Below, piece after piece: positions 1,063 to 63,398 of a stretch of 64,000 nucleotides of DNA; the stretch's first letter is position 1, and each line of letters opens with the position of its first letter. The notes beneath the pieces were generated by a model. The model was not told where the DNA came from, did not search any database, and saw nothing but the letters and a program-made list of their open reading frames with translations. The DNA comes from a phage. The position numbers and the translations under genes are program-made. The stretch is from the sequence record PZ445524.1; one strand, written 5' to 3'.

Positions 1063-1698
1063 TCACAGTTCAGATGCTACAGTGATTACAGCTTCAATGT
1101 TTTCTGCCGAGCGTTTAATGTCAAGATACACATTACCGTTTTTAGCGATTTTACATGACATTCCGATATCAGTAAATTTCTGAATATGATGTTCCATCAT
1201 TTTGTATCCAAAAATTCGCATATTTCCATTGTTGTTAATTTCAAAATTACGAATTCCGTTAGTGCGTTTTTCTAAAATAGCAAGATAATTACTACGATAA
1301 ATTTCAACCTTTTTAAGAACAAATCCATTTTTATCTAAAAGTTTTAACACGAGGTCTTTATCTTCTTCCATATCGGAAGTAATCTCGCGAGCTTTACGAG
1401 TTGCTCGTTTTTTCAGTAGTTCCGGAGCATTTTCCTGTGCGTATAAAGTAGCTGCATTTGAAATAATATCCTGAGCTTCACCTGTAATGATTAATCCATC
1501 ACCAGATTTCTCCACCAGGCCTTTTTTAATCAATACCCCAATATTACTATTAACTACTGCGTTACCTAAATCTGGATGCACCTCACGAACTTCTGCAGCT
1601 GTAATGAAATCTTTCTTAGCAATGGTAATTAAAATCGTAGCAGTTTTTTCATTCAGAACATCGTTAGAAGCTTTGATGATGTAAGTTACTTTAGACAT
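1063..1698 (-). CDS. motA: MotA, activator of middle transcription (binds MotA box)
   Basis: 211 aa ORF; sequence recognised from memory as T4 MotA; lies downstream of gene 52 as in T4; preceded by early promoter/leader motif. Confidence 0.9.
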   Translation of the reverse strand: MSKVTYIIKASNDVLNEKTATILITIAKKDFITAAEVREVHPDLGNAVVNSNIGVLIKKGLVEKSGDGLIITGEAQDIISNAATLYAQENAPELLKKRATRKAREITSDMEEDKDLVLKLLDKNGFVLKKVEIYRSNYLAILEKRTNGIRNFEINNNGNMRIFGYKMMEHHIQKFTDIGMSCKIAKNGNVYLDIKRSAENIEAVITVASEL

Positions 1699-1739
1699 TT
1701 TCTAATCTCCGTAATTCTGTATCAGTAGTTGATAGTTGT

Positions 1740-1769
1740 ATAGTACCACAGTATGCTTTGGTTGTAAAC
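1740..1769 (-). promoter_or_regulatory. early promoter (GTTTAC -35, TGg-TACTAT -10) with conserved leader, upstream of motA
   Basis: minus strand reads GTTTAC-N18-TACTATACAACTATCAACT...GGAG-ATG; same module repeated at other sites. Confidence 0.6.
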
Positions 1770-1795
1770 CGTTTTGTGAAAAAATTTTTTGAAAT

Positions 1796-1822
1796 AAAAA
1801 AAGGGAGAGCCTCGGCTCTCCC
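1796..1822 (-). terminator. rho-independent terminator (GC hairpin + U-run on minus strand)
   Basis: minus strand GGGAGAGC-CGAG-GCTCTCCC followed by TTTTTTT; directly after stop of small gene at 1828. Confidence 0.6.
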
Positions 1823-1827
1823 TAAAA

Positions 1828-1977: not shown

Positions 1978-3302
1978 TTGATTTCCTCTAAATCTTTGGT
2001 GTATTCTGTAACTACATCAGTAGTTTTCCAATATTCGTTTTCTTCTTTTTTAGCTTTAGCTTCTTCAGCAAGTTTCTTCGCTTCATCGGAAGTCATATGA
2101 AAAATATTCATTCCAACTAGTTTATCAACATAAGAAGAATACATATCGATTTTCGAAAGTTCTTCGGTCAGTTCTTTACGAGTTTTACCCTGTACAACGA
2201 TTTCACCTGAAATTACCTTCTTAATGAAATGTGCCTTGGCAAAGGCTAAACGAAAAGCTGACTCAGTTTCTTTAATTTTGTTATCAATTCGTTTTTGGAC
2301 ATAAGTTTTACGAACTTCAACGAAGTCTTTAATTAAATCGACTACGTTATCGTAAACTTGTAGTTTTCCTTTCTCATTAATAACCGTAATATTCTGGGAA
2401 CGACGCTCAATCAACCCGAAGTCTTTCATAATTTTTGCATGGCGTTCTTCTTCGTTATCGCTCAAAGAGTATTCTTTGCGGAATTTAACTTTGAAGCCAA
2501 AGCCATGCTCACCACAAGCATCATCCCATGTAATGAAGCCTTTATCTTCAAGCGGGTCTAAGATTTTACTCACATAAGTTTCACGATCATACTTATACGG
2601 AATCTCAGTGATATGCATTTGAGTTCGTGAAGTAAACTTGTATGTTCCACGAATTTCATATTGCCCATCAATTTCAACGACTTCACCACGAAATTCTGGG
2701 AATTCTACTTTCGGTTTAGTTACTTTCTTTCCTTGAAGAGCTTGCAGTACAGCTTTCTTAACAGAAGAAACACTATGAGGAAGAATGTAAGTTGCATAAC
2801 CAGTTGCAATACCGGAAACGCCATTAAGAAGAACAGTAGGAATAACAGGCAAATAGAAAGCAGGCGGAATGTGTTCTTTATCTTGATGTACCGGAGCATA
2901 TTCAGTATCTTTATATACGTTATAGAAATTTTTACTTACACGAGCAAAAATATAACGACTTGCTGCTGCCTTTTGGACAGTACGAGAACCAAAGTTTCCT
3001 TGACCATCTAATAGAGGAAAGTTATTATTCCAAGTATTAGCCATCAAAGCGCCCGCATCTTGTGCAGAGTTTTCGCCATGATGATATCCAAGGTCCGCTA
3101 CACCACCTGCGATAGAAGCGAGTTTGTGAAACTTATCTTTATTTCCTCGTGCCAAATCAAGAGCTCGAGCAATAACAAATCGTTGAACTGGCTTAAATCC
3201 ATCAATCATATTTGGAATGGCACGATTTTCAACCGTGTACATAGCATAAGCCAATGCTTCATTATCAATGATACTTTTTAAATCGCGATTATTCAGTTGC
3301 AT
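1974..3302 (-). CDS. 52: DNA topoisomerase II medium subunit (GyrA-like)
   Basis: 442 aa, matches T4 gp52 length; GyrA/ParC-type N-terminal region (PNMIDGFKPVQRF); position beside motA and ndd. Confidence 0.95.
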   Translation of the reverse strand: MQLNNRDLKSIIDNEALAYAMYTVENRAIPNMIDGFKPVQRFVIARALDLARGNKDKFHKLASIAGGVADLGYHHGENSAQDAGALMANTWNNNFPLLDGQGNFGSRTVQKAAASRYIFARVSKNFYNVYKDTEYAPVHQDKEHIPPAFYLPVIPTVLLNGVSGIATGYATYILPHSVSSVKKAVLQALQGKKVTKPKVEFPEFRGEVVEIDGQYEIRGTYKFTSRTQMHITEIPYKYDRETYVSKILDPLEDKGFITWDDACGEHGFGFKVKFRKEYSLSDNEEERHAKIMKDFGLIERRSQNITVINEKGKLQVYDNVVDLIKDFVEVRKTYVQKRIDNKIKETESAFRLAFAKAHFIKKVISGEIVVQGKTRKELTEELSKIDMYSSYVDKLVGMNIFHMTSDEAKKLAEEAKAKKEENEYWKTTDVVTEYTKDLEEIK

Positions 3303-4920: not shown

Positions 4921-5020
4921 AGTAAACGTTTAATACATCAATCATTAAAACGATTGGGAATATACTCAAAACTATTAGTATTATAACTACATTCCATATA
5001 GCTTTAATAATCTTTTTCAT
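4907..5020 (-). CDS. small membrane protein (37 aa)
   Basis: track ORF 4907..5116 runs through an early promoter; trimmed to ATG at 5020, which is preceded by GGAGG in the conserved leader. Confidence 0.45.
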   Translation of the reverse strand: MKKIIKAIWNVVIILIVLSIFPIVLMIDVLNVYFGFM

Positions 5021-5048
5021 TTTCTGTTCCTCCGTAGTTGATAGGGTA

Positions 5049-5078
5049 ATAGTACCACGGAAGAACAGTCTTGTAAAC
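5049..5078 (-). promoter_or_regulatory. early promoter with conserved leader
   Basis: GTTTAC-N18-TACTAT on minus strand, leader ...CAACTACGGAGGAACAGAAA-ATG. Confidence 0.55.
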
Positions 5079-5262
5079 AACTTTTTAAAAATATTCGTAA
5101 TAAATGTGAATACCAACTACTACCGCTGAAACCTGTGCAACCCACCACGCACAAGCAATAAGTACAGAATTCAAAATTTTCATAATAACCTCATCACAAA
5201 AGTAAATGTTAAACAAATTAATGGAATACTAATTAACCAAACAAAACACCACCATAATGAAC

Positions 5263-5535
5263 TCATAGTTCAATCTCAGCGATTTTCATTTCATTACTAT
5301 TAATAGCCGCTTTAAGACTATCTGAAAGAATTACATTCCAATGGTCATTCATATGACCACTAACTAAGCGTGTAATTTCTTCAGGAGTTGAAAAATAAGG
5401 CTGATCAGACTCCCAATGCGATAGTCCCAAGCGAGTATAAATCATACCTTCATCATCGCTAGAATATTCAACTGACACAAACTCATCAGTTATTTTATGT
5501 TTAGCGTAATAAAATTTAAATTTCATTTTACTCAA
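5263..5535 (-). CDS. hypothetical protein (90 aa)
   Basis: ORF track. Confidence 0.55.
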   Translation of the reverse strand: MSKMKFKFYYAKHKITDEFVSVEYSSDDEGMIYTRLGLSHWESDQPYFSTPEEITRLVSGHMNDHWNVILSDSLKAAINSNEMKIAEIEL

Positions 5536-5738
5536 TAATCCGCTAAAAGATCAACGATTGCATCACGAAGACACTTATTCGCAATACGTTTAAGAGCAAT
5601 TTCAGTTTCTGGAGCATTTTGAATAATCATTGAATTCAATTCAGCCTCAGCAAACTGAAGTTCTTTAACTAATTCAGCTTTATATTTTCCTTGCCCTTTC
5701 TTAGCTTTTGCTCGTTTTAATTCAGCTGTAGTAAACAT
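5532..5738 (-). CDS. hypothetical protein (68 aa)
   Basis: track ORF starts at TTG inside leader; trimmed to first ATG (MFTTAELKR) after GGAG. Confidence 0.55.
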   Translation of the reverse strand: MFTTAELKRAKAKKGQGKYKAELVKELQFAEAELNSMIIQNAPETEIALKRIANKCLRDAIVDLLADY

Positions 5739-5772
5739 TTTATTCTCCAAATCCGTATCAGTTGATAGTTGT

Positions 5773-5802
5773 ATATTACCACAGTCCTTGTGGTATGTAA
5801 AC
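5773..5802 (-). promoter_or_regulatory. early promoter with conserved leader
   Basis: GTTTAC-N18-TAATAT then ACAACTATCAACTGATACGGATTTGGAG-ATG. Confidence 0.55.
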
Positions 5803-5820
5803 CGTTTTGGGAAAAAATTT

Positions 5821-6378
5821 TTAAATGGAGAGATACCATCCGTTGTAGTTGCTTTTTCTTACAACCTTACGAAGGTCTTCTCTATCACCGATGAATTTCG
5901 GAGTGTACTGGATGACACCTGGGTGAATTTCTTTAGTGTTGAATATAATTATACAGTCAGCGACTTGGTGATTCAGAATGGGCCCTAGATTTATTCCAGA
6001 ACCGTATGGATACTCTCCGCTGCATCCGGTTGTTACCGAAATCCAACGTGAGTCAGTTTGATGTGTCTTAACTTCTACACGAAGCCCACAGTATTTTGGA
6101 TGCGCCAATACATCCCATGCATATGTGTACGGATCATCGACATCTTCTTGACCTTTGTTAACATACCCGCTCAGCCAATCTGCTACAAAAAACTCTGCGT
6201 ACACAGCGATACGGCATCTTTCGATAACTTCTGCCTTATCCTGATTTGGGTTTTGTTTTAAAGAGTATCTTGCAGTATCAGCAATTTTGACCTTCATTTC
6301 ACTGGTCAAGTCACTGTTCGATAGGGTAAATGTCGGAATCTGAAATAGTCTCTGTAACCCAGGATTCGTTTTCTGCAT
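5821..6378 (-). CDS. denB: endonuclease IV (DenB), cytosine-DNA-specific ssDNA endonuclease
   Basis: 185 aa, the T4 DenB length; sits immediately downstream of rIIB as in T4; assignment positional. Confidence 0.7.
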   Translation of the reverse strand: MQKTNPGLQRLFQIPTFTLSNSDLTSEMKVKIADTARYSLKQNPNQDKAEVIERCRIAVYAEFFVADWLSGYVNKGQEDVDDPYTYAWDVLAHPKYCGLRVEVKTHQTDSRWISVTTGCSGEYPYGSGINLGPILNHQVADCIIIFNTKEIHPGVIQYTPKFIGDREDLRKVVRKSNYNGWYLSI

Positions 6379-6462
6379 TTAAACTTTCCTTTATGTCGGA
6401 ATCACCGATATTCATATAATAAATCATAATTTCTCTTAAAACAAAAGGGCCGAAGCCCTTAT

Positions 6463-6657: not shown

Positions 6658-6689
6658 AATTTTCCTTAATATGATAAGGGCCGAAGCCC

Positions 6690-7628
6690 TTATTTAAATT
6701 GTTCAGTAACGTCTTCAACTACTTCGTATTGGCAGGTACGCATTTTAGCATCGTTGTAATCAATCGGAATTGATACTACATCACGCGGATGTACTTTAAC
6801 TTTTACAACTCGGCTAGTTGAACTGCCAAAGTGACGAATATAAGATTTAGAACACACATGCAGACCACGAGAACAAGTTTGTGTATCATCGTCATTCACA
6901 CGAGTACGTGGCATTTTAACTACTTTACCCGGACTGTTATCAAAGGTGTTTGAGTGACAGTCAAAGTAATTGCTGCGAACTACTTTCCAAGCATAGAAGT
7001 AACCATCTTCTGTAATTTCAATATCGTTTGCTACCAAGAAATCAAAGAGTCGAGATACCGCTTTTTGGCTTGGGTTTTCTAGCAGATTTTCCAAGAACGG
7101 AAAATAAAATTCAAAGTTTTCGCCTTTTTCCATCGAGTCAAGAATACGATCAACCAAACCAGACCGCAATTCAATATTTTGATAGAACAAGCTTCCACCT
7201 TCAATTCGAACATCGCCGGAAATATATTTTTCAACAGCACGACGAACATTAATTTTTTGTGCCGCTTCTTCCAACTTATCCGCTACAAGCAGATTAAGAA
7301 TTTCCTGGAAGTTTGAATGAGTATTAGGAGTTGCGTTATAAGTTACACCGTCAACAGTAATTGAAATGAATTTTTTAGATGCATTCCAAATAATGTCAGA
7401 TTTAGCAACTGGAGCAATAACTGCATCGCTATTAACTTTAACTGTAATATCACCGCTAATAGTAACTTTAGGGTGTTTAGCTTCTTCAGCATTTTTCAAA
7501 ACACGACGGATTGTGTCAACCGATACACCTTGCCAATCAGCCAATTCCTGTTGGGTATAATTACCACTTGAATACAGCTTAACAATTTCAGCTTGTTCGT
7601 TTTTGGTCAGGCATTTAATATTGTACAT
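6690..7628 (-). CDS. rIIB: rIIB protein
   Basis: 312 aa, T4 rIIB length; directly downstream of 725-aa rIIA. Confidence 0.9.
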   Translation of the reverse strand: MYNIKCLTKNEQAEIVKLYSSGNYTQQELADWQGVSVDTIRRVLKNAEEAKHPKVTISGDITVKVNSDAVIAPVAKSDIIWNASKKFISITVDGVTYNATPNTHSNFQEILNLLVADKLEEAAQKINVRRAVEKYISGDVRIEGGSLFYQNIELRSGLVDRILDSMEKGENFEFYFPFLENLLENPSQKAVSRLFDFLVANDIEITEDGYFYAWKVVRSNYFDCHSNTFDNSPGKVVKMPRTRVNDDDTQTCSRGLHVCSKSYIRHFGSSTSRVVKVKVHPRDVVSIPIDYNDAKMRTCQYEVVEDVTEQFK

Positions 7629-9827: not shown

Positions 9828-10031
9828 TTAATTCATATTACGCTTAATAACTTCAGCAACTTCTAGTAATTCATCTTTAGTTGCGGTGTCGGATTGAATT
9901 TTATCTCTAATATCCTTAAAGCGGTTTTTAAATTCTTCGGCTTCTCCCATATCGAAAAAGCGTTGAATGATTCTATATTCTCGATGAACTGCTTTATCAA
10001 AAAGTTCTAAATTTACTCTATATGATTTCAT
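9828..10031 (-). CDS. hypothetical protein (67 aa), rIIA.1-like
   Basis: ORF track; between gene 60 and rIIA. Confidence 0.55.
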
Positions 10032-10056
10032 TTCAATATCCTCATTTGCCCAATTA

Positions 10057-10086
10057 ATTATACCACATCCTTGTGGTAAAGTAAAC
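10057..10086 (-). promoter_or_regulatory. early promoter (GTTTAC-N18-TATAAT)
   Basis: minus strand GTTTACTTTACCACAAGGATGTGGTATAAT; -35 overlaps gene 60 stop. Confidence 0.55.
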
Positions 10087-12948: not shown

Positions 12949-13014
12949 TTATCCTCGTTTGGTTTCGGGAATATTATACTCCAATAATCATAAAGCTAAA
13001 GGCCCGAAGGCCTT

Positions 13015-14481: not shown

Positions 14482-14751
14482 TTAATTGAACATTGGAGCG
14501 ATACGTTTCAGAAGAGTAGCAGCACCTTTGGCGAATTTTACATCATGAAAAACAGTTTCTTCTTCCGTTACAACACGAACTTTAATGTTTTCACAATCCC
14601 AATTTTTACGAACAATCTTCAAAAGCTGCAGTAAATCTTTACATTCAGCAATATCGATAACACATCCACGAGAATCTTCCATTATCGCACGATAACCGTA
14701 AGCCATACCATAATCGTTGAAAGATTGCTCGATGATAATTAAGTTTTCCAT
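14482..14751 (-). CDS. hypothetical protein (89 aa)
   Basis: track ORF starts at TTG in leader; trimmed to ATG (MENLIIIEQ) after GGAG. Confidence 0.55.
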   Translation of the reverse strand: MENLIIIEQSFNDYGMAYGYRAIMEDSRGCVIDIAECKDLLQLLKIVRKNWDCENIKVRVVTEEETVFHDVKFAKGAATLLKRIAPMFN

Positions 14752-14775
14752 TTTATTCTCCAAGTTGTTTTCTGT

Positions 14776-14818
14776 ATCAGTAGTTGATATTGATATAGTA
14801 CCATAATCAACTACTGAT
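14776..14818. repeat. 13-bp perfect inverted repeat flanking a promoter -10 element
   Basis: atcagtagttgat (14776-14788) and atcaactactgat (14806-14818) are exact reverse complements, 17 bp apart. Confidence 0.8.
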
Positions 14819-14848
14819 GTATATAGTTTTATGAAAAAATTTTAAACT

Positions 14849-15346
14849 TTATGCACAGCGAGCTTTGCTATAGTGTTTAATCCAACTTTCAGGAATGACT
14901 TTGTATGTTCCTAAAAATACCGCGTTGTACAGCTTAACACCATCTTCTACCCACTGATCGGTAATGTATGCGCACATAGCACGAGTACGGTGTTTTTGAA
15001 CAACCCCTTCCTCATCTTCAGTAAATTCGAATTCATAAGGAGCAACGAACTTGATAGCTTGACCGAGTTTCCACTTAAAGTCTACACCTACATGCGAAGT
15101 ATCAATCGTTTCAATTCCTTTAGCAGGAACAGCTTTCAAAAACGCAGATTCAAGAAATTTCGCGCGAACATAACCAAACTGAGGTTTAGACTTTCCATCT
15201 TTAGGAATGATACGCACTTTTACTTCAGAATCTTCATCTTTAACGCCGTGTTTAAGCTGAATGCTTACAATTTCGACCAATTTTCCTGCTGCTTTAGAAC
15301 GGGATTTATCAGATACACGAGCAATTTCACCAATATTAATAATCAT
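14849..15346 (-). CDS. hypothetical protein (165 aa), MotB-region paralog A
   Basis: ORF track; C-terminal block CAYITDQWVEDGVKLYNAVFLG resembles that of 15423..15965. Confidence 0.6.
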   Translation of the reverse strand: MIINIGEIARVSDKSRSKAAGKLVEIVSIQLKHGVKDEDSEVKVRIIPKDGKSKPQFGYVRAKFLESAFLKAVPAKGIETIDTSHVGVDFKWKLGQAIKFVAPYEFEFTEDEEGVVQKHRTRAMCAYITDQWVEDGVKLYNAVFLGTYKVIPESWIKHYSKARCA

Positions 15347-15422
15347 AGTTATCTCTCACTTGTTAAAAAGATTTTATACTCCGCGGGACCATTATACTCT
15401 GGTCCCAAGAGTTTGTAAACTA

Positions 15423-15967: not shown

Positions 15968-16468
15968 TTATCTCATTTCAATAAAATCTACGAGTTCAGC
16001 ATGCGATTTGCGGAACATTACTTGATGCCCACCAATGATAACTTCATCTTCAGGAACTTCGTATACAGCGAGATAAAATCCTTTAGAAGATAATTCTTCC
16101 CGCTCTTCTCGTGTGAACCATCTCATCATATCATACTCACTAGCGAAAGCAAAATGATAAAGAGCTATAAACCATCCTGGAATATGATATTCTACTCCAA
16201 CATAATCTTTCTTGAACTTAGTATTAATTACTATATTAGCGTTTTTAACTAATAGTTTATCTTCGTGTGGTAAAGGAATTCTTTTATTATTATCGCTATG
16301 ATGCATAAAATTAGGTCTGTCATAACCTACGTGTAATAGCCACTCTTCGCTCCATGAATCTATTATACTCCTGTACGGCGTTATTTGAACACAAAGATTT
16401 CGACGTATTGTTATAGCGTCTTCATAATCAAGAATACTAAACGATGATTCAACACGATAAATTTTCAT
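15968..16468 (-). CDS. hypothetical protein (166 aa)
   Basis: ORF track; early promoter GTTTAC-N18-TATTAT upstream at about 16506-16535. Confidence 0.6.
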   Translation of the reverse strand: MKIYRVESSFSILDYEDAITIRRNLCVQITPYRSIIDSWSEEWLLHVGYDRPNFMHHSDNNKRIPLPHEDKLLVKNANIVINTKFKKDYVGVEYHIPGWFIALYHFAFASEYDMMRWFTREEREELSSKGFYLAVYEVPEDEVIIGGHQVMFRKSHAELVDFIEMR

Positions 16469-16532
16469 TTTTATTATCCTCAGTAGCTATGGTGTTATAA
16501 TACCATAACTAACCGAGGAAGTAAACAACTTT

Positions 16533-27991: not shown

Positions 27992-28133
27992 TGAAAGCTT
28001 TAACTAATGCTTTATTAACTTCAGCATACTGAGTAGTAGCCCATTGAACGTCATCTTTCATCATTGTGGTTTCTTTAGTAAACATGCTTTCATTCTTAAA
28101 CCACCCCATAAAAACTACCTTTACCAATTCCAT
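27951..28133 (-). CDS. dmd: Dmd antitoxin (inhibitor of host RnlA/LsoA RNase toxins)
   Basis: 60 aa MELVKVVFMGWFKNESMF..., recognised from memory; immediately upstream-adjacent to 41. Confidence 0.75.
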   Translation of the reverse strand: MELVKVVFMGWFKNESMFTKETTMMKDDVQWATTQYAEVNKALVKAFIDEKKVCEVDCRG

Positions 28134-28191
28134 AACAATCTCCTCATTTAACCAACAAGACTACTATACCATAGTCTTGTCAGCTTGTAAA

Positions 28192-29619
28192 CTAAAATTT
28201 TAATTCATTTGCCAAAGCATCTAACTGGGCTCGAGTGGATTCATTTCTTTGATAGCGATTCTGCTCAGCCTGAATCTGTTGTGAACCTGCTACTTCGTTC
28301 ACTTCAGTTGGAGTAGAATCTTGTTCAATTTCTACCCATTTCTGATTTCCTTTTTGAACACCCATCAAAAACTTATTCCATTTGTTCTTATCGCCATATC
28401 GTGATTTGATTTGCTTAATGAGTTGTTGTTCAGCAGCTGCTAACTCCTCGGTTTCAATGACCGCAAGCATAAAATCGGCTGTTGCTGGAAGACCGGCAGA
28501 TTCTGCAATATCGCTCATGTTAACATCAGAAGAATCCCAAGCTTGTTTACCAACCTGTGCTGCAGTCCAAAGAACAGTTTCGGTTTCAACAGCAAGAGCA
28601 CGCAATTCCTCTGCAATAGCTTTAACAGTTGTGTAACTATTTTCTGAATAAACTCTAATGCGGCAAGATTTACAAATACCCAGATAGTCGACAATAATGA
28701 TTGTTGGAACAAAATTCTTCTTGAGCTTCAATTCGTTTAAAAGTGATCGAAATGTATTAGCATCTGCTCCACCGGTAGGATACTGTTTAACGATTAAACG
28801 ACCGAGAGTAGATTTCTCACGCCATTTTTCCATTTTTCCTTTATATTCAGCGTAAGAAATATGCCCATCATCAATGTCATCAAGAGAAACATCAAGCATA
28901 TTAGCATCAATACGCTTAGCACAGACTTCTTCTGCCATTTCCATGGAAATGTAAAGAACATTATGTCCGAGCTGCAAATAATCTGCTGCCAATGAACACA
29001 GACCTAATGACTTACCAACGTTAACGCCAGCCATTAAAACGTTCAGTGTTCCAGTCTCAGCTCCGCCTTTAGTAATTTTGTTTAGAATTCTGAGTTTAAA
29101 TGGAACCTTACGAGCTTTATTCATATAAGATAGCCAACGTGCTTCGTAGTCAGCCATCCAATCATGACCAACGTAGCTATCAAATGAAATTGATAATGCT
29201 TGGCGCATGATGTCAGGAATAGCACCAACATCCGGCATTTTCTTATTTCGTTTTTCCGGAGGAAGCTCAGCATTAGTTTGAATTTCGATTATTTTAGACG
29301 TAGCATTAAACATCGCCCTTTGCTGAACATATTTTTCTGTTTCTTTTACTAACCAGCTGTGGTCTTCCGGAGAATCAGCCAGTTTTGAAATAAGTGTTTT
29401 TACACCAGAATATTCTGTTTCAGTAAATGAACTATTTTCTAATGCAACATTTAACGCATTAATAGATGGAACGCTATGATACTCATTGACATGAGATTTA
29501 ATTAATTTGAATGTATTTTTAGCTGGACCACTTTCAAAATATTCTGAATCCATATATGGCCAAACTTTTGAAAAATAAGCTTGATCAAATATGAGATGAG
29601 AAAGAATAATTTCTACCAC
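28192..29619 (-). CDS. 41: replicative DNA helicase (DnaB-like)
   Basis: 475 aa; Walker A GVNVGKS; T4 gp41 length. Confidence 0.95.
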   Translation of the reverse strand: MVEIILSHLIFDQAYFSKVWPYMDSEYFESGPAKNTFKLIKSHVNEYHSVPSINALNVALENSSFTETEYSGVKTLISKLADSPEDHSWLVKETEKYVQQRAMFNATSKIIEIQTNAELPPEKRNKKMPDVGAIPDIMRQALSISFDSYVGHDWMADYEARWLSYMNKARKVPFKLRILNKITKGGAETGTLNVLMAGVNVGKSLGLCSLAADYLQLGHNVLYISMEMAEEVCAKRIDANMLDVSLDDIDDGHISYAEYKGKMEKWREKSTLGRLIVKQYPTGGADANTFRSLLNELKLKKNFVPTIIIVDYLGICKSCRIRVYSENSYTTVKAIAEELRALAVETETVLWTAAQVGKQAWDSSDVNMSDIAESAGLPATADFMLAVIETEELAAAEQQLIKQIKSRYGDKNKWNKFLMGVQKGNQKWVEIEQDSTPTEVNEVAGSQQIQAEQNRYQRNESTRAQLDALANELKF

Positions 29620-33686: not shown

Positions 33687-34067
33687 TCACTTAGTCAAAT
33701 TTTTTACACATGAATTATAAGAATTCACTACATACTCCATCGGAGCATTTTTACCGGTACGCCACTGGTAATTATTAGCCCAATTTGCCCAAAGCACAGC
33801 ACAGTAGTTTTCAATTTTTTCTTCGCGTGTAATTACATCCGAATTACGATATGCTTGAGCAGATTCATCTGGACGAATAGCTTCGTCAAAATTCGCCTGC
33901 ATTTGTTCTACTGTCTGTTTTGGAGCTTCTTTATAACACTTGACATTAGGATTATAAAATTTGCTTGAACAGTTTACAATTTTTCCTACATCAGACTGAT
34001 TTACTACCGGTCCTTGAGCTACACAACCAGCAAGACCTAATGCAATAACCAAAATAGCGATTTTCAT
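33687..34067 (-). CDS. putative lipoprotein (126 aa), imm.1-like
   Basis: trimmed from TTG to ATG (MKIAILVIALGLAGC lipobox); conserved leader GGAG upstream. Confidence 0.6.
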   Translation of the reverse strand: MKIAILVIALGLAGCVAQGPVVNQSDVGKIVNCSSKFYNPNVKCYKEAPKQTVEQMQANFDEAIRPDESAQAYRNSDVITREEKIENYCAVLWANWANNYQWRTGKNAPMEYVVNSYNSCVKNLTK

Positions 34068-34104
34068 TTCATTCTCCAAATCCGTATCAGTAGTTGATAG
34101 TTGT

Positions 34105-34134
34105 ATAGTACCATAGAAGAACAGGGATGTAAAC
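34105..34134 (-). promoter_or_regulatory. early promoter with conserved leader
   Basis: GTTTAC-N18-TACTATACAACTATCAACTACTGATACGGATTTGGAG. Confidence 0.55.
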
Positions 34135-34219
34135 AGTTTTATGAAAAAAAATTTTTAGGGAATCCAAAGGGTCCAGAATCATCTCTTTTTCATAAGTATA
34201 GATTTATATTACTTGTATG

Positions 34220-38923: not shown

Positions 38924-38957
38924 AATTTCCTCATTCAAGTTTTAGTGTAAATTATAA

Positions 38958-38971
38958 AGGGCCGAAGCCCT
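38958..38971 (-). promoter_or_regulatory. AGGGC-UUCG-GCCCU hairpin between 45 and 44
   Basis: seen on minus-strand RNA immediately after gene 45 stop. Confidence 0.55.
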
Positions 38972-38974
38972 CTA

Positions 38975-43642: not shown

Positions 43643-43667
43643 TATATCAAACTCCGTATAAAGCTAA

Positions 43668-43681
43668 AGGGCCGAAGCCCT
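43668..43681 (-). promoter_or_regulatory. AGGGC-UUCG-GCCCU hairpin at 3' end of alpha-gt
   Basis: seen in sequence. Confidence 0.55.
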
Positions 43682-44884
43682 TTATTTTGTAATAATGTCA
43701 AACTGTTCTTTAAAGCAGAAGCTTGAATCTTGATGCTGATACAAAAATTCATATGCTTTTTCTCGCTCACGGTCATAAAGAGCTCGGTCAGATGACAGTT
43801 CTTTAATACGTTCAAATGTTGATTCCATGTCATTTTCATCAAACCAAATGATACCGCTATCATGCGAGGTCAAAGGAGTATTATCAACACGGAATTTTAA
43901 ATTTTCGCCAGTAGATTTCCAGAAAACAGGAATTGTACCGCAAGCACCTAATTCAAGATGAGTATATTCGAGTGAGCGTTGTAAGTATTTCTGGTTAAGT
44001 TTACTCAACTGATATCCAAAGCCAGATTTACTCATTCGTTCAAGCATTTCACTATTAATATAACAATCTAGGATTTGTGCCGGTTGATTCGGCGCGAGAT
44101 TCATTTTATCAATCTCACGATTACCGTAATATTCATACGGAATACCTTTTTCCTTAATTGCAATAAAAGCAGGGGAACGTTCAAGACCTTCCATTACAGT
44201 GGATTTACCAGAAGGTTTTAAGAATTTTTCGTGAAAATCAAACATCTGATAAAAACCTTTCCATGTAGTCGTACGACCAATCCAACGGTTGATGTTCATG
44301 TTAATTTCAGAAACATCTTTCCAATAAGTTGACCGAACCTTCGCAATATCCATAGGAGGCTGAAAGTTATATACTGTCGGTGCTTCTTCAATATCATCAA
44401 ACAGAGAAACAGTTTCTGGATACCATTCTTTCATCAGAACTTTATTAAAATCACCATTATCAGAATGGCTAAAAATAACATCAGCTCGACGAACAGTTTC
44501 TTCTAATCCCAAATTTCGACGCAAAGAAAGAACAGAATGATCATGCTGATAAACTACAACACGAATAGAAGGTTTAATATTATCTAAAAGTTTTTTATAG
44601 TTATTAATCGTGGCTTCTTGAACGGAAGTAGCAGGAACAGAATTAATAATTAGAATATCACAATCATTAATCAGTTTAAGTGCTTTATCGTATTCTTTAG
44701 CTAAAATAACTGGAATTGAAAATGATTTGTGGTCATGAGAACTTGTACGAGTAAATGATTTATCTTTAGCATAAACCAAAGTTACTTCATGACCATTTTT
44801 AATAAACCAATCACGTTGCTCGAGTGAGAATTTTGTTACACCACAACCTTCAAGACCCCGAGCCAGAAAAATGCATACTTTCAT
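43682..44884 (-). CDS. agt: DNA alpha-glucosyltransferase
   Basis: 400 aa, T4 alpha-gt length; position between 55 and 47. Confidence 0.9.
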   Translation of the reverse strand: MKVCIFLARGLEGCGVTKFSLEQRDWFIKNGHEVTLVYAKDKSFTRTSSHDHKSFSIPVILAKEYDKALKLINDCDILIINSVPATSVQEATINNYKKLLDNIKPSIRVVVYQHDHSVLSLRRNLGLEETVRRADVIFSHSDNGDFNKVLMKEWYPETVSLFDDIEEAPTVYNFQPPMDIAKVRSTYWKDVSEINMNINRWIGRTTTWKGFYQMFDFHEKFLKPSGKSTVMEGLERSPAFIAIKEKGIPYEYYGNREIDKMNLAPNQPAQILDCYINSEMLERMSKSGFGYQLSKLNQKYLQRSLEYTHLELGACGTIPVFWKSTGENLKFRVDNTPLTSHDSGIIWFDENDMESTFERIKELSSDRALYDREREKAYEFLYQHQDSSFCFKEQFDIITK

Positions 44885-47303: not shown

Positions 47304-47320
47304 AAAAAGGGCCGAAGCCC
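47304..47320 (-). terminator. GGGC-UUCG-GCCC hairpin + U5 terminator
   Basis: directly after stop of 47321..47521. Confidence 0.6.
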
Positions 47321-47521
47321 TTAGCTAAACTTTTTGGCACCCTTCCAGCCTTCGTACATCATTGCGGCTGATATTAATATTGCTCCTGAGCAACTTGAAT
47401 ATTTGTGGTTCCAAAACCAATTCAGAAAAACTTCGTCATCAATACCTTGGGCTATCATATTTTCAAAGAACTGACGACGAGCTTCGGCAATTCGCTGCGA
47501 TAATTTAGATTCAGGATTCAT
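47321..47521 (-). CDS. hypothetical protein (66 aa)
   Basis: ORF track. Confidence 0.55.
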   Translation of the reverse strand: MNPESKLSQRIAEARRQFFENMIAQGIDDEVFLNWFWNHKYSSCSGAILISAAMMYEGWKGAKKFS

Positions 47522-55508: not shown

Positions 55509-55538
55509 ATTATACCACATCCTTGTGGCAAAGTAAAC
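55509..55538 (-). promoter_or_regulatory. early promoter (GTTTAC-N18-TATAAT)
   Basis: minus strand GTTTACTTTGCCACAAGGATGTGGTATAAT. Confidence 0.55.
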
Positions 55539-57929: not shown

Positions 57930-58457
57930 TTATGCGAGTACCGTCTTTAACCGTTCTTCAAACTTCCGAAGAGTGTTCTGGCGTTCAGCTCTTTGCTTTT
58001 TGTAAGTTTCAATACGCTCTGAAATGAGAGTGTATCGTTCATTTACTGATTCTTTCATAAAATCAGGAATTTCACGAGAAGCTTTAATCTCATCAAATTT
58101 ATCAATAACAGCTTGCTCTTCAGCAATTAAGTTATCATACATCAAAATATCTTTCTTGATGAACTCAATATCTTCTTGAGTTACACGAGATAATTTAGAT
58201 GCTTTATCCTTTTTGTACTGTTCATTAGTATCACGAGACCAGTGTAATGTACGATTTTTATTCGTATTTTTGTAAATTTCTACAATACCAATCTCATCGA
58301 TAATAACGATCCAATTCCAACGAGATTTGTAAATTTGCCCTCCGTCAACCGTGATTTCACCTCCGATTGAGATGTCATTAAAGAACTTGCTTTGTGCTTC
58401 AGATTTAAATTTACCATCGTTGTAATTTACCAGGTTGAAAATATCTTTAGCGTTCAT
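57930..58457 (-). CDS. hypothetical protein (175 aa)
   Basis: ORF track; conserved early leader upstream. Confidence 0.6.
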   Translation of the reverse strand: MNAKDIFNLVNYNDGKFKSEAQSKFFNDISIGGEITVDGGQIYKSRWNWIVIIDEIGIVEIYKNTNKNRTLHWSRDTNEQYKKDKASKLSRVTQEDIEFIKKDILMYDNLIAEEQAVIDKFDEIKASREIPDFMKESVNERYTLISERIETYKKQRAERQNTLRKFEERLKTVLA

Positions 58458-58485
58458 TTTGTGTTCCTCCGTAGTTGATAGTTGT

Positions 58486-58515
58486 ATAGTACCACAGAGG
58501 AACAGTCTTGTAAAC
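58486..58515 (-). promoter_or_regulatory. early promoter with conserved leader
   Basis: GTTTAC-N18-TACTATACAACTATCAACTACGGAGGAACAC. Confidence 0.55.
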
Positions 58516-58517
58516 CA

Positions 58518-58832
58518 CTAAAAGAAACTTCTTTCACAATTTTTTCCACTGAACCACGCGCTCACTGCTTTCTTAGTCTCAGGAGCAGTGTTATCCATAA
58601 ACCATTCAAAGGCAGCCTTTTTATGATTCTGGAGGGCTTCTCGGGCTTTAATCTGCTCACGGTCTATTAACACTAACATATGAGCCTTTCTTGTCACCAG
58701 GGGCTTCTTATGATTTTTTGAATACTCCCAATCATTTGTCCATCGCATCGTTGTTGCGAATTGAAGTACAGCTTCTTTAATCTTAGTTTCGTAAATTTCA
58801 CGAGCCTTTGAGTATAACATCATTACCTCCAT
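58518..58832 (-). CDS. hypothetical protein (104 aa)
   Basis: ORF track. Confidence 0.55.
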   Translation of the reverse strand: MEVMMLYSKAREIYETKIKEAVLQFATTMRWTNDWEYSKNHKKPLVTRKAHMLVLIDREQIKAREALQNHKKAAFEWFMDNTAPETKKAVSAWFSGKNCERSFF

Positions 58833-58921: not shown

Positions 58922-59890
58922 TTATTTCAGAAGAGTAACCTCAGCGATTTCTTCCCAACCGTTTTTGTCGGTCATAATAAAGTCAGCAAGATAAAGAGCA
59001 GTACGCAGTGAAACATTGCGTAAACGGTTAACATTGACTTTCATCCATGATAATGCTTTATAAGTTTCTTCATCAGAAAGACCGCGCTTTTGCATCATGT
59101 CAGTTGAAAGAATAACATCTTCAACCCTGACCATAATTTCTTCATTAGTGTGAACACCCAAATCCAAATAAACTGAGCGGGACACTAATGCTTGTAAATG
59201 TGGAGCAAGTTTAGTACCACGGTCTAATTCGCGGTCAATGTCAACGTTTGTGATAAAAACAATCGTTCCTTTAAATTCAAACTCACGCTCAATGCCTTTT
59301 TCTTCTAAATAAGAAGATGCAGTGCTCCAGCAGACTTTACGGGTCTCTCCAGTGTCCAGAGCAGCTTTCAGAAGATTAAGAATGTCCATATCAGAGAAAA
59401 CATCCACATCATCAATCAAAAGGACAGAATTCTCTTCACGATTATTCCAGAGCTGTTCATAAAGACCGATACCAGAGATTTTACCGTTAATGCTTTTATA
59501 TTCAATGTATCCAATATCATTTGCTTTATTTAAAGCTTTATCTAAAGAATACGTTTTACCAATACCTGCTGCTCCCGAGATAATTAATGAACGAATATTT
59601 CCGTTAATAATACCATTCGTCATCATTCCCATAACATTAAATCTTTTATTAATGCGGGTTTTCATATCTTCATATGATTCTTTAACTTCTTCAACTTTTA
59701 CACCATCATATGAAATGTCTGATTTGTAAACCCAAACACCACGACGTTTACCGTCAATTTCAACAAAAACTTTACCATCTCCTTGTGCATCTACTGGTGC
59801 ATTATCTGGGAACCATTCGCCTAAGAGCTCAAAAGTTCCAGAGATTTCTTTACCGAAGTAGATACCCTTATTGATAGTTACAGTTTTCAT
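58922..59890 (-). CDS. AAA+ family ATPase (322 aa)
   Basis: Walker A GAAGIGKT, Walker B VLLIDDVD; trimmed from TTG to ATG after GGAG in conserved leader. Confidence 0.7.
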   Translation of the reverse strand: MKTVTINKGIYFGKEISGTFELLGEWFPDNAPVDAQGDGKVFVEIDGKRRGVWVYKSDISYDGVKVEEVKESYEDMKTRINKRFNVMGMMTNGIINGNIRSLIISGAAGIGKTYSLDKALNKANDIGYIEYKSINGKISGIGLYEQLWNNREENSVLLIDDVDVFSDMDILNLLKAALDTGETRKVCWSTASSYLEEKGIEREFEFKGTIVFITNVDIDRELDRGTKLAPHLQALVSRSVYLDLGVHTNEEIMVRVEDVILSTDMMQKRGLSDEETYKALSWMKVNVNRLRNVSLRTALYLADFIMTDKNGWEEIAEVTLLK

Positions 59891-59924
59891 TTTATTCTCC
59901 AAATCCGTATCAGTTGATAGTTGT

Positions 59925-59954
59925 ATAGTACCATAAAGCTTTATGCTTGTAAAC
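59925..59954 (-). promoter_or_regulatory. early promoter with conserved leader
   Basis: GTTTAC-N18-TACTATACAACTATCAACTGATACGGATTTGGAG. Confidence 0.55.
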
Positions 59955-59978
59955 AGTTTTGTGAAAAATTTTTGAAAT

Positions 59979-60002
59979 AAAAAAGGGAGCCCGAAGGCTC
60001 CC
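59979..60002 (-). terminator. rho-independent terminator (UUCG hairpin + U-run)
   Basis: GGGAGCC-UUCG-GGCUCCC then UUUUUU, right after stop at 60005. Confidence 0.65.
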
Positions 60003-62410: not shown

Positions 62411-62740
62411 AATTACATACTCCTTTGAATAATATCAATAATGTTGTTCACCAGATTATAAGTAAACATTGGGTAATTATATTGAATCATCACATACACA
62501 ACAAACAAAATTTTCATTCTCTTCTCCTTGACAGTTGACAAGATTACTATACCATAACCTTGCCAACTTGTAAACCATTAAATGACGTTTTCAATAAAAT
62601 TCTGAAGCTTTGTGTGAGCATCAACCATGATTTTCATTTCTTCCTTTGCGAAAGCTGTACCTCTTTCCCGAGAAGAACATTCATAGTCAGAAACTGCATT
62701 AGCATATTCTTCAATTAGCTTCATTAAAAACATCTGCTTT

Positions 62741-63156: not shown

Positions 63157-63308
63157 GCCATGTGAGTTGCAACTTCATCACACATATTATAACGTTTCTT
63201 AAGAAGTTCTACAAGTTCTTCACTAGTAACTTCATCCATGTCGACGAAAAAATCACCATTAATGATGACGTAGATATTTCCTTCTTGATTGAGTGCTTCA
63301 ATTTTCAT
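63120..63308 (-). CDS. hypothetical protein (62 aa)
   Basis: track ORF trimmed to ATG (MKIEALNQ) after AGGAG, downstream of promoter. Confidence 0.5.
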
Positions 63309-63336
63309 GATGTTCTCCTCTTTATCCGATGGTTGT

Positions 63337-63366
63337 ATAGTACCACAGCTCAAACGGAAAGTAAAC
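63337..63366 (-). promoter_or_regulatory. early promoter
   Basis: GTTTAC-N18-TACTATACAACCATCGGATAAAGAGGAG. Confidence 0.55.
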
Positions 63367-63376
63367 CGGTAAAATG

Positions 63377-63398
63377 AAAAAAGTCTCCCGAAGGAGAC
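63377..63398 (-). terminator. rho-independent terminator (UUCG hairpin + U-run)
   Basis: GUCUCC-UUCG-GGAGAC then UUUUUU after stop at 63404. Confidence 0.6.

Follow-up and report, generated by a model that had tools for sequence, protein, structure and literature searches.

Repeated early promoter and leader cassettes in the genome of a T4-like phage

Early promoters and their gene setting

The window, by which we mean the whole stretch of 64,000 nucleotides analyzed here (sequence record PZ445524.1), comes from a Tequatrovirus (T4-like phage) and shows 96-97% identity to Tequatrovirus genomes, including that of Yersinia phage PST. It extends from arn.2/motA through rIIB/rIIA to mobD.5, and all of its genes are carried by the minus strand. 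The regB gene lies beyond the end of the window and is annotated in PST and T4. Downstream of the repeated cassettes considered here lie ORFs orthologous to early genes of T4 or PST; the named T4 orthologues found behind promoters are motA, ndd.4, imm.1, nrdC.8, nrdC.10, mobD.5, dmd, modB and others, and the ORF behind the 1769 promoter (each copy being designated by the start of its -35 hexamer) is 99.5% identical to T4 MotA.

A first-pass annotation of this DNA described a repeated early promoter joined to a conserved 5' leader, along with a second class of promoters that lack the leader. Motif search and alignment located all eight leader-bearing copies on the minus strand, as well as all seven leaderless promoters, with the original coordinates of the latter accurate to within ~10 nt, and added four leaderless promoters that had been missed (Table 1). 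Thus, 11 early promoters in the window lack the shared leader. The observation that several mechanically called ORFs start too far upstream was borne out: the in-frame TTG with which those of nrdC.10, ORF269 and imm.1 begin lies 12 nt upstream of the ATG, and the ATG is the start in the T4/PST annotation.

Table 1. Early promoter cassettes of the window (copy coordinate, start of the -35 hexamer; SD, Shine-Dalgarno sequence)
Cassette (copy)	Span	Strand	-35 hexamer	-10 region	Inferred start	RegB/S1-type site or SD	ATG	Other features
motA (1769)	1696..1823	minus	GTTTAC 1764-1769	TGG + TACTAT 1740-1748	~1733	GGAGATTAGAA 1700-1710, 1 mismatch to consensus	1696-1698	terminator hairpin 1802-1823; A/T-rich UP-like tract ~1770-1800; shares leader up to +16, then diverges
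ndd.4 (5078)	5018..5108	minus	5073-5078	5049-5054	~5042	GGAGG SD	5018-5020	short leader
ORF269, PST ORF269 homologue (5802)	5736..5832	minus	5797-5802	TAATAT 5773-5778	~5766	GGAGAATAAAA 5738-5748, exact consensus	5736-5738	full leader
Variant before 89-aa ORF in motB-cef gap (14824)	14749..14850	minus	ATATAC (degenerate) 14819-14824	TGG + TACTAT 14795-14803	~14788	14751-14761, exact consensus	14749-14751	13-bp inverted repeat ATCAGTAGTTGAT / ATCAACTACTGAT on either side of -10 hexamer
imm.1 (34134)	34065..34165	minus	34129-34134	34105-34110	~34098	GGAGAATGAAA 34067-34077, 1 mismatch to consensus	34065-34067 (true ATG)	full leader
nrdC.8 (58515)	58455..58545	minus	58510-58515	58486-58491	~58479	GGAGG SD	58455-58457	short leader
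nrdC.10 (59954)	59888..60001	minus	59949-59954	59925-59930	~59918	59890-59900, exact consensus	59888-59890	full leader; UP-like tract; UUCG-loop terminator ~59984-60001
mobD.5 (63366)	63306..63398	minus	63361-63366	63337-63342			63306-63308	terminator ~63383-63398; common part is -10 hexamer + ACAACCATC only
rIIA.1, leaderless example (10086)	10029..10086	minus	GTTTAC, then N15	TGG + TATAAT				followed by its own short leader
Leaderless promoters, first-pass annotation	-35 starts 10086, 16526, 20159, 21495, 28192, 48183, 55538	minus						
Leaderless promoters, added here	-35 starts 15420 (motB), 23588 (mrh.2), 27689 (sp), 62575 (mobD.2)	minus						

The elements of these promoters follow the order UP element, GTTTAC, 15 nt, TGG and TAYWAT; the spacing between the hexamers is 18 nt with TGG included, and not 18 nt ahead of TGG as initially proposed. 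The pattern GTTTAC-N15-TGGTAYWAT has 11 matches in the window (0.01 expected), all of them on the minus, that is, the coding strand, and with up to 2 deviations from it 19 promoter sites are detected, every one again on the minus strand. A generic sigma-70 scan, which returned 76 sites compared with 80 expected, is uninformative, and the T4-specific pattern alone discriminates. For the core TGGTACTATACAACTATCAACT, 6 matches with up to 3 mismatches were found, exclusively on the minus strand, against 0 expected from 100 shuffles, and a repeat search recovered the places listed in the first-pass annotation, in families that are 71-91 nt long and number 7-8 copies. A/T-rich UP-like tracts of the AAAAATTTTTTCACAAAAC type, which belong to these repeat families, are located upstream of the -35 hexamer in most copies and are weak or absent at nrdC.8, rIIA.1 and nrdC.4. 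The repeated module, originally given as a block of ~45 bp, is in reality ~95-125 nt long, as it extends over a further ~30 nt that are A/T-rich and UP-like and, at several sites, over an upstream terminator hairpin.

In the T4 early consensus, GTTTAC occupies positions -36..-31 and is followed by TGn and by the -10 hexamer at -12..-7 (PMC1524935; PMC2988021). Because the copies lie at T4-orthologous positions and match this consensus, we identify them, on the strength of sequence and position, as T4 early promoters, and the initial designation as an early promoter stands. The orthologous sites of T4 bear the same, near-identical cassettes, and in phage fPS-90 the site orthologous to the imm.1 cassette is annotated as a "predicted early promoter". 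The T4 early promoters (Pe) and those of the window have in common the UP element, GTTTAC, TGn, the -10 hexamer and the early-gene strand, and precede the same genes (motA, imm.1, nrdC.8, nrdC.10 and others). There is no essential difference in the window phage; its few strain variants comprise the TAATAT hexamer of ORF269, insertions or deletions of ACT within the leader, and one additional ORF that follows the motB-cef copy. The Pe class was reportedly the subject of Liebig & Rüger 1989 (J Mol Biol 208:517). A search of a paper library for genome-wide T4 transcription start-site maps found none.

Anatomy and function of the leader

Three segments can be distinguished in the leader. The first is the start-site core ACAAC/TATCAAC, which is partly untranscribed: its initial 6 nt, ACAACT, probably lie upstream of the start site and hence belong to the promoter rather than to the RNA. 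The middle segment (UGAUACGGAUUU and variants) is prone to indels and specific to Tequatrovirus, and the third segment, the 3' end GGAGAATAAAA-TG, comprises the Shine-Dalgarno sequence and the exact published RegB/S1 cleavage consensus. The full leader, through GGAGAAT(A/G)AAATG, is present in the 5802, 34134 and 59954 copies and, with a longer insert, in the 14824 copy, which shows presence/absence variation among relatives. The ndd.4 and nrdC.8 copies have only CTATCAACTAC in common and then lead straight into GGAGG. Away from promoters, no leader remnants were detected in the window at up to 3 mismatches, the only matches being the three full copies. The 49-nt leader is present at 3,037 places in 542 phage records, with hosts typical of Tequatrovirus, whereas in RB69 (Mosigvirus) what is retained is limited to the start-site core, the Shine-Dalgarno sequence and the geometry. 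An IMG/VR scan with a 22-nt core gave only 21 instances in ~7 T4-like contigs, a number that revealed alternative downstream genes but was insufficient for tests of rates.

The 3' end of the leader can be compared directly with published work. Durand et al. 2006 determined the optimal RegB/S1 site to be the 11-nt sequence GGAGAAUAAAA and found no conservation 5' of GGAG among RegB substrates, with motA and motB being good T4 substrates, nrdC.8 a moderate one, and motB.2 cut at a GGAU site (PMC1702504). The 3' 11-13 nt of the window leader, namely the Shine-Dalgarno sequence plus GGAGAAUAAAA, are identical to this optimum, and like the published target are (by prediction) single-stranded and located in the translation initiation region of early mRNA (Durand et al. 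2006, PMC1702504; review PMC3014915). Exact GGAGRAYARAA sites occur three times in the 64 kb, against 0.3 expected, all in leader copies (Table 1); motA, imm.1, motB, motB.2 and mobD.2 have sites with a single mismatch. The RegB-type sites lie 3-4 nt upstream of the start codons of early-gene orthologues, in leaders that are predicted to be single-stranded. The short-leader copies, which have GGAGGAAC... (GGAGGAACA) in this region, depart from the consensus and fit it poorly (3 mismatches in ndd.4 and 2 in nrdC.8). By extension from the T4 literature, we infer that RegB would cleave the leaders of the window phage as well.

The first-pass annotation read the conservation of the transcribed leader as a sign of a shared RNA-level function. 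Such a function exists, because the 3' 11-13 nt of the leader are a Shine-Dalgarno sequence combined with the published RegB/S1 site; judged from this correspondence, it is translation start and RegB inactivation, and is already known. The suggestion finds no support in the rest of the leader, which yields no predicted structure, covariation or Rfam match and varies through indels. Upstream of the Shine-Dalgarno sequence, a specific cis-regulatory RNA, whether structured or attenuator-like, similar to a riboswitch, or bound by an sRNA or a protein, appears extremely unlikely. It would agree with the finding that up to six copies are identical over 13-37 nt past the -10 hexamer and with a small inverted repeat, UAUCA-N5-UGAUA, in the ACTACT variants. 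However, secondary-structure prediction, which had been put forward as a check, indicates that the leader RNAs are unstructured, folding no better than shuffled sequences (z-scores of -0.75 to +1.2); RNAalifold run on 13 leader variants gave 0 consensus pairs and no covariation, and there are 0 Rfam matches in the window. Furthermore, the leader is dispensed with by the 11 other early promoters of the window, and the published RegB substrates lack a common sequence upstream of GGAG (PMC1702504). The UAUCA/UGAUA hairpin itself was rejected: the frequent loss of ACT, the short-leader variants and natural G-to-A substitutions all break it, and none is accompanied by a compensating change.

The start-site core, which in a weaker form is also present in other T4 early promoters and in RB69, poses a separate question. 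One possibility is that ACAAC TATCAAC (~-6 to +8) acts as a DNA-level element, that is, a discriminator, start-site region or initial transcribed sequence, that may adjust how stable the open complex is, where transcription starts or how the polymerase escapes, or may let Alt/ModA-modified polymerase or the early-promoter shut-off discriminate among promoters. Outside the leader family, a consensus c-T-T-A-T-C-A-A-C-T at -3..+7 emerges from 25 T4 early promoters, with frequencies of 0.40-0.72 per position, and the RB69 early promoters bear the same core; in T4, most TACTAT promoters are followed by TATCAAC, compared with few of those that have another -10 hexamer. Reviews (including PMC2988021) note that T4 early promoters contain extra consensus regions of unexplained role and that the shut-off is not fully understood. 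Nevertheless, promoters outside the leader family show modest information content, inheritance as a block would account just as well for the association of the core with the -10 variant, and the proposal covers only ~14 nt and not the whole leader. We consider such an element rather unlikely, and it would complement the preferred explanation given below, not exclude it.

Between -10 and +13, the copies vary less than would be expected of a purely neutral linker; this block goes together with the TACTAT form of the -10 hexamer and may have an extra function, as yet unrecognised. To our knowledge, neither a RegA operator nor an NAD-capping start-site motif accounts for the conserved part of the leader. 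A broader proposal is that the uniform block from the -10 hexamer to ~+20 (ACAAC-TATCAACTAC-UGAUAC...) is a specific cis element, functioning either as a mark that singles out some early transcription units for shut-off or for different handling by Alt/ModA-modified polymerase, or as an S1-binding or translation-enhancing 5' end; we give it a slim chance.

Cassette recombination and predicted promoter-enclosing hairpins

Several observations document exchange of genes at the cassettes. In the 5802 copy, the homology between the window and T4 spans the cassette and ends exactly at the ATG, with unrelated genes beyond. The ORF269 segment of 210 nt is an indel relative to one IMG/VR contig (L023), with junctions in the part of the leader between the Shine-Dalgarno sequence and the ATG, and in IMG/VR contigs the same cassette is joined to a third gene, such that one leader precedes three different first genes. 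The cassettes are also mosaic internally: ORF269 and nrdC.10 are identical (100%) over the first 20 nt after the -10 hexamer with a spacer identity of 40%, and conversely, nrdC.10 and T4 frd.3 share 100% of the spacer and only 55% of that 20-nt stretch. These homology breaks at the ATG and mosaic segments show cassette recombination directly.

In T4-type phages, the PeSL (promoter-early stem-loop) elements have been described as "mobile regulatory cassettes" (Arbiol et al. 2010, PMC2839356; Comeau et al. 2014, PMC4122927). In the original study of phages RB49 and phi1, crossovers were mapped between the -10 hexamer and the Shine-Dalgarno sequence/ATG, and inverse PCR on infected cells or virions served to examine the formation of excised mini-circles by recombination between neighbouring cassettes (PMC2839356). 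PeSL elements were subsequently catalogued in T4 and in PST, to which the window is most closely related, with the exchange of ndd.4/.5 for ORF268/269 as a worked example (PMC4122927), and this very exchange is present at 5018-5832 of the window. Like the PeSL elements, the window cassettes are composites of ~100 bp that proceed from an A/T-rich region or stem-loop through the -35/-10 hexamers to the Shine-Dalgarno sequence and ATG, adjoin small variable ORFs, and contain the junctions at which gene content differs from relatives. Unlike them, the long-leader imm.1 and ORF269 copies lack a strong stem-loop within ~60 nt and have upstream terminators or none. By sequence and arrangement, then, the cassettes with leader and start codon match the published PeSL.

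A purely historical account, under which recent duplication or conversion of whole cassettes produced the repeats and selection acts on the generic hexamers and the Shine-Dalgarno sequence only, would accommodate the mosaic segments, the indel junctions at cassettes and the finding that short homology patches suffice for T4 recombination (PMC2839356). We regard it as very unlikely, considering that the A-rich 7 nt after GGAG exactly match the experimentally defined consensus and that the start-site core persists across genera. Whole-cassette duplication as the sole cause was rejected in view of several pairs with unrelated -35/-10 spacers next to 100% identical leaders, the reverse combination being seen as well.

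The stem-loops associated with the promoters are of different kinds. Terminator hairpins are located upstream of the promoters of motA, nrdC.10, mobD.5 and mrh.2, and strong hairpins that enclose the -10 hexamer are predicted at ndd.4, nrdC.8, motB.2, motB, dmd, mobD.2 and the 14824 copy (z-scores of -3.4 to -5.4; -4.6 for the 14824 copy). In ndd.4, complementarity between the -35/-10 spacer and the Shine-Dalgarno region results in a predicted hairpin with the -10 hexamer in the loop (read-through RNA fold of -22.7 kcal/mol, z = -4.2; duplex of the spacer with its own leader, -23.3 kcal/mol), and the nrdC.8 spacer is likewise complementary to its Shine-Dalgarno region (-20.8 kcal/mol, z = -4.1). 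Control by a promoter inside a hairpin is established for the T4 genes e, soc, 49 and I-TevI (review PMC3014915). As in these genes, the 5' arm in ndd.4, nrdC.8, motB.2 and several others lies before the start and the 3' arm covers the Shine-Dalgarno sequence; the known cases differ in that they involve late promoters and were tested experimentally, whereas the window promoters are early and the effect is predicted. Under the folding models, the ribosome-binding site would be free only in transcripts from the internal promoter, and there is a slim chance that short-leader cassettes of this kind, in which spacer and Shine-Dalgarno sequence pair, provide small early ORFs in general with a switch of the type "only my own promoter can express me". 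The authors of the PeSL studies read the stem-loops as terminators or attenuators.

Origin of the near-identity and implications

Taken together, the copies are very probably T4-type early expression cassettes, the similarity of which stems from promoter constraint, selection on the Shine-Dalgarno/RegB end, and descent with recombination. Under this explanation, host sigma-70 RNA polymerase would bind an unusually complete promoter (A/T-rich UP element, GTTTAC, extended -10 TGG, and TACTAT or TATAAT) and would start ~7 nt past the -10 hexamer, at the A of cTATCAAC, as judged from the T4 literature. The resulting 5' UTR would be 22-43 nt long, G-poor and unstructured, and would end with the Shine-Dalgarno sequence GGAG, an A-rich spacer and the ATG. 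GGAG together with AAUAAAA would form the 11-nt single-stranded target of RegB, which is stimulated by ribosomal protein S1; as published for T4 and presumed here, RegB would cut within GGAG minutes into infection, turning off translation of the early mRNA.

The near-identity of the copies would then have three sources. The first is constraint on the promoter and start site, as suggested by the weaker cTATCAACT at -3..+7 in unrelated T4 early promoters and in RB69, and the second is selection on the Shine-Dalgarno/RegB end. The third is common descent accompanied by homologous recombination through the PeSL mechanism, which would swap small early ORFs and spread leader variants; the block recurs because recombination shuffles the cassettes. 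For the middle segment, with no sign of a specific function, descent and recombination are the best explanation, selection and gene conversion being not cleanly separable among the few independent copies compared.

The promoter class, the PeSL cassette and the RNA-level role of the GGAG-A-rich end have all been published, and there is no new kind of element here. For annotation, the analysis places the start codon of each of several small early genes at the ATG and not at the TTG upstream, marks 19 early transcription units in the window and flags the probable RegB-target mRNAs. The window provides a base-resolution example of the swapping of small early genes at promoter-leader cassettes in T4-like phages, a process that bears on the gain and loss of host-takeover and anti-defence genes.

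Early promoters of a Tequatrovirus

The first 6 kb of the window show 96-97% identity to Tequatrovirus genomes, e.g., those of Yersinia phage PST and Escherichia phage ADUt, and the ORFs behind each repeat were placed by mapping onto T4 and PST. The window runs through arn.2, motA, gene 52, ndd, denB and rIIB, passes the conventional genome start to rIIA, motB, dda and modA/B, and continues through gene 43 and the nrdC genes to end at mobD.5; the mapped genes all lie on the minus strand, the direction of early and middle transcription in T4.

The block preceding the MotA ORF reads GTTTAC-aaccaaagcatactg-TGG-TACTAT-acaactatcaactactgatacagaattacGGAGattagaaaATG. Its 22-nt core, TGGTACTATACAACTATCAACT, has 6 matches in the window at up to 3 mismatches compared to 0 in 100 shuffles, and the pattern GTTTAC-N15-TGGTAYWAT occurs 11 times, on the minus strand only, against 0.01 expected. 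A repeat search of the window recovered families 71-91 nt long at the positions listed in the first-pass annotation, and a relaxed promoter scan yielded 19 sites, with 0 on the plus strand. By these motif, repeat and relaxed scans, all 8 leader copies and 7 leaderless sites claimed in that annotation are real; four promoters (motB, mrh.2, sp and mobD.2) were missing from it. It had also noted TTG starts within the leader: at three copies, the mechanically called ORFs indeed open with an in-frame TTG located 12 nt 5' of the ATG, and the T4 and PST annotations both use the ATG, which is the true start.

The repeated early promoter thus stands on counts far above chance and on its match to the published T4 early promoter, which has GTTTAC at -36 to -31, a G/T-rich extended -10 region with T-12, A-11 and T-7 in the consensus, and an A-rich UP region (PMC1524935). 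A review of T4 transcription describes "uber" UP/-35/TGn/-10 promoters and additional consensus regions (PMC2988021). The same promoter rule finds 37 sites in T4, where the same sequences occupy the orthologous sites at motA, ndd.6, ndd.4, e.8, nrdC.10, nrdC.8, imm.1 and frd.3, and the annotation of phage fPS-90 has a "predicted early promoter" at the site orthologous to the imm.1 copy. By analogy with T4, the copies would be active as early promoters.

The composite unit begins with an A/T-rich region or stem-loop and ends with the Shine-Dalgarno sequence and ATG; it is the same as the PeSL (promoter-early stem-loop) of Arbiol, Comeau and Krisch, a mobile regulatory cassette with the consensus TTTACW-N17-TAYWAT that has been catalogued in PST and T4 (PMC4122927). 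The worked example in that study, the exchange of ndd.4/.5 (T4) for ORF268/269 (PST), is the locus of one pair of copies in the window (see the table). The elements described here are therefore already known, as T4 early promoters, PeSL and the RegB/S1 site.

Positions of promoters, leaders, hairpins and ORFs in the window
Feature	Position	Strand	Remark
motA block	1715-1770	minus	
PeSL worked-example pair	5018-5832		
ORF269	5526-5748	minus	
rIIA.1 promoter	10057-10086	minus	
nrdC.4 promoter	55509-55538	minus	
Variant copy	14795-14824	minus	degenerate -35 hexamer ATATAC
Variant cassette and 89-aa ORF	14482-14850	minus	motB-cef gap
imm.1 spacer and mini-ORF	34065-34077	minus	
ATG, 58-nt geometry	5020		
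ATG, 58-nt geometry	16468		
ATG, 58-nt geometry	27631		
ATG, 58-nt geometry	55480		
ATG, 58-nt geometry	58457		
ATG, 58-nt geometry	62517		
ATG, 58-nt geometry	63308		
Hairpin cassette	5018-5078	minus	
Hairpin cassette	15346-15420	minus	
Hairpin cassette	16468-16526	minus	
Hairpin cassette	28133-28192	minus	
Hairpin cassette	58455-58515	minus	
Hairpin cassette	62517-62575	minus	
UUCG hairpin	6445-6460		
UUCG hairpin	~6676-6691		
UUCG hairpin	12999-13014		
UUCG hairpin	38957-38972		
UUCG hairpin	43667-43682		
UUCG hairpin	47307-47322		

Composition and exchange of the cassettes

Alignment of the copies, named here by the downstream gene, shows that the leaders are graded rather than uniform. 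The whole leader is present at ORF269, imm.1, nrdC.10 and the 14824 copy (the variant cassette, named after the start of its -35 hexamer); the motA leader departs from the others past +16; ndd.4 and nrdC.8 have no more than CTATCAACTAC in common with the others, followed immediately by GGAGG, and mobD.5 no more than ACAACCATC. The repeated unit reaches further upstream, into an A/T-rich tract and, at several copies, into a terminator hairpin.

Placing the start site by the published numbering, at the seventh base past the -10 hexamer, we infer that transcription begins at the A of ATCAAC, such that ACAACT would be untranscribed and represent the promoter discriminator region. The consensus of positions -3 to +7 in 25 T4 early promoters that do not belong to the leader family is c-T-T-A-T-C-A-A-C-T, with a frequency of 0.40-0.72 per position, and RB69, a Mosigvirus and hence of a different genus, has cTATCAAC at the same place, its -10 hexamer and ATG likewise 27-29 nt apart. 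Given this persistence outside the leader family and in RB69, the start-site core belongs to the promoter class in general. The -6 to +8 core might additionally act as DNA, in open-complex stability, promoter escape, Alt/ModA discrimination or shut-off discrimination; its recurrence across genera, and the unexplained consensus regions and unexplained shut-off noted in reviews (including PMC2988021), make this a plausible addition, albeit an unlikely one.

With the start so placed, 7 of the 19 window cassettes belong to a short-leader class with a 22-nt 5' UTR, and in these seven the distance from the G of GTTTAC to the ATG is exactly 58 nt. In an alignment of the variants, the long leaders differ from the short leader, AUCAACUAC-UGA-GGAGAAUAAAAUG, by sequence inserted between UGA and GGAG (UACGGAUUU, UACAGAAUUAC and UACAGAAAACAACUU); this middle segment is probably a tolerated linker carrying no specific signal. 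In the imm.1 copy, an A-rich spacer, AATGAAATG, leads into a two-codon mini-ORF, ATG AAA TGA, which overlaps the real start codon; T4 has the same variant.

Different segments of the cassette have different relatives. The rIIA.1 and nrdC.4 promoters, which belong to the leaderless class, share 29 of 30 bp of the core promoter, including the palindromic spacer CCACAAGGATGTGG, to which the ORF269 spacer is related, and their flanks on both sides are unrelated (~20% identity). From the -10 hexamer to the ATG, ORF269 matches nrdC.10 at every position, but the spacers of the two are unrelated (40% identity); nrdC.10 and T4 frd.3 are alike in the UP region (83%) and spacer (100%) and diverge past +3; and the spacer of T4 imm.1 has 93% identity to that of ndd.4 but is combined with the other leader class. 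That identical leaders can have unrelated spacers does not fit pure neutral duplication. Judging by these alignments, the cassette segments recombine.

The genes behind the cassette are exchanged as well. The window aligns with T4 through denB and the entire cassette, and similarity disappears right after the ATG, past which lie ORF269 in the window and ndd.6 in T4. In T4-like contigs from IMG/VR, the same cassette is joined directly to an ORF268 homologue; relative to these, ORF269 is a 210-nt indel with the junctions GGAGAATAAAATG upstream and TGAGTAAAATG downstream, both in that end of the leader which runs from the Shine-Dalgarno sequence to the ATG. Across phages, one cassette thus has three partners (ndd.6, ORF269 and the ORF268 homologue). 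These junctions within the cassette reproduce the published picture, in which PeSL crossovers map between the -10 hexamer and the Shine-Dalgarno sequence/ATG (PMC2839356), and by analogy with T4 the exchange would be PeSL-mediated. The full 49-nt leader is found in 542 GenBank phage records, at ~5.6 places per genome and with the hosts of Tequatrovirus, and is absent from RB69.

Hairpins around the promoters

Outside the long-leader family, many cassettes lie within a hairpin: the spacer between -35 and -10 is complementary to the leader of the same cassette, in many cases to the Shine-Dalgarno sequence, and the -10 hexamer is in the loop. In T4, the duplex of spacer and own leader averages -11.6 kcal/mol, compared to -7.3 with other leaders (permutation p < 1e-4), and 13 of 31 promoters have their own leader as best partner; in the window, the two means are -11.4 and -7.6 kcal/mol, respectively. 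Read-through RNA of ndd.4, nrdC.8, motB.2, motB, modB, dmd, mobD.2 and the 14824 copy has z-scores of -3.4 to -5.4, with hairpin-cassette folds of -19 to -26 kcal/mol, and RB69 keeps the motB.2 hairpin with a different sequence (-22.5 vs -23.1 kcal/mol in the window). These hairpins are the PeSL stem-loops, which were read as terminators (PMC2839356). There is also a likeness to the hairpins of T4 genes e, soc, 49 and I-TevI, which have a late promoter inside, and on this basis the read-through transcripts may be translationally silent.

In the 14824 copy, the -10 hexamer is flanked by a perfect 13-bp inverted repeat (ATCAGTAGTTGAT / ATCAACTACTGAT), and this copy is predicted to drive an 89-aa ORF. 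Of 508 records from related phages, ~261 have the ORF intact; T4 and PST have an internal deletion right past its ATGG, which leaves the cassette and a remnant of the 3' end of the ORF. Six short G+C-rich hairpins form a family, AAGGGCCGAAGCCCTT (minus strand GGGCUUCGGCCC, with a UUCG tetraloop), that presumably represents the stable UUCG hairpins or terminators well known from T4 intergenic regions. The same loop occurs in terminators upstream of the nrdC.10, mobD.5 and mrh.2 cassettes.

Leader RNA and the RegB site

Conservation of the transcribed leader had suggested a shared RNA-level function, and the structure prediction proposed along with it came out negative. Folding of seven leaders, each from the inferred start through position +15 within the ORF, gave z-scores of -0.75 to +1.2 against dinucleotide shuffles, two of the leaders lacking any structure; RNAalifold predicted 0 pairs for 13 natural leader variants, and an Rfam search of the window returned no matches. 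According to these models, the leaders are without RNA structure, and a specific structured or bound RNA element, as their conservation might imply, is very improbable. A small UAUCA-N5-UGAUA hairpin possible in some variants was rejected: it is lost, uncompensated, in the ACT-deletion, short-leader and G-to-A variants. Both RegB/S1 action and efficient initiation require an unstructured, G-poor leader.

The 3' end of the leader, GGAGAAUAAAA, is an exact letter match to the efficient-cleavage sequence of Durand et al. for RegB, the S1-stimulated phage endoribonuclease, which recognizes GGAGRAYARAA in single-stranded RNA, S1 working via the A-rich part (PMC1702504). Exact matches to this consensus number 3 in 64 kb, compared to 0.3 expected, every one in leader copies, and motA and imm.1 are each one position off. 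Among the published substrates, motA and motB are good and nrdC.8 is moderate, and the 48-nt window around the cut shows no conservation outside the site (PMC1702504). Cleavage by RegB would thus be expected at each copy in this phage; in T4, RegB/S1 cuts in GGAG result in functional inactivation of early mRNAs. The proposed RNA-level function accordingly holds only at the Shine-Dalgarno/RegB end, where it is already published; outside that end, the leader is promoter-proximal consensus and recombining cassette sequence.
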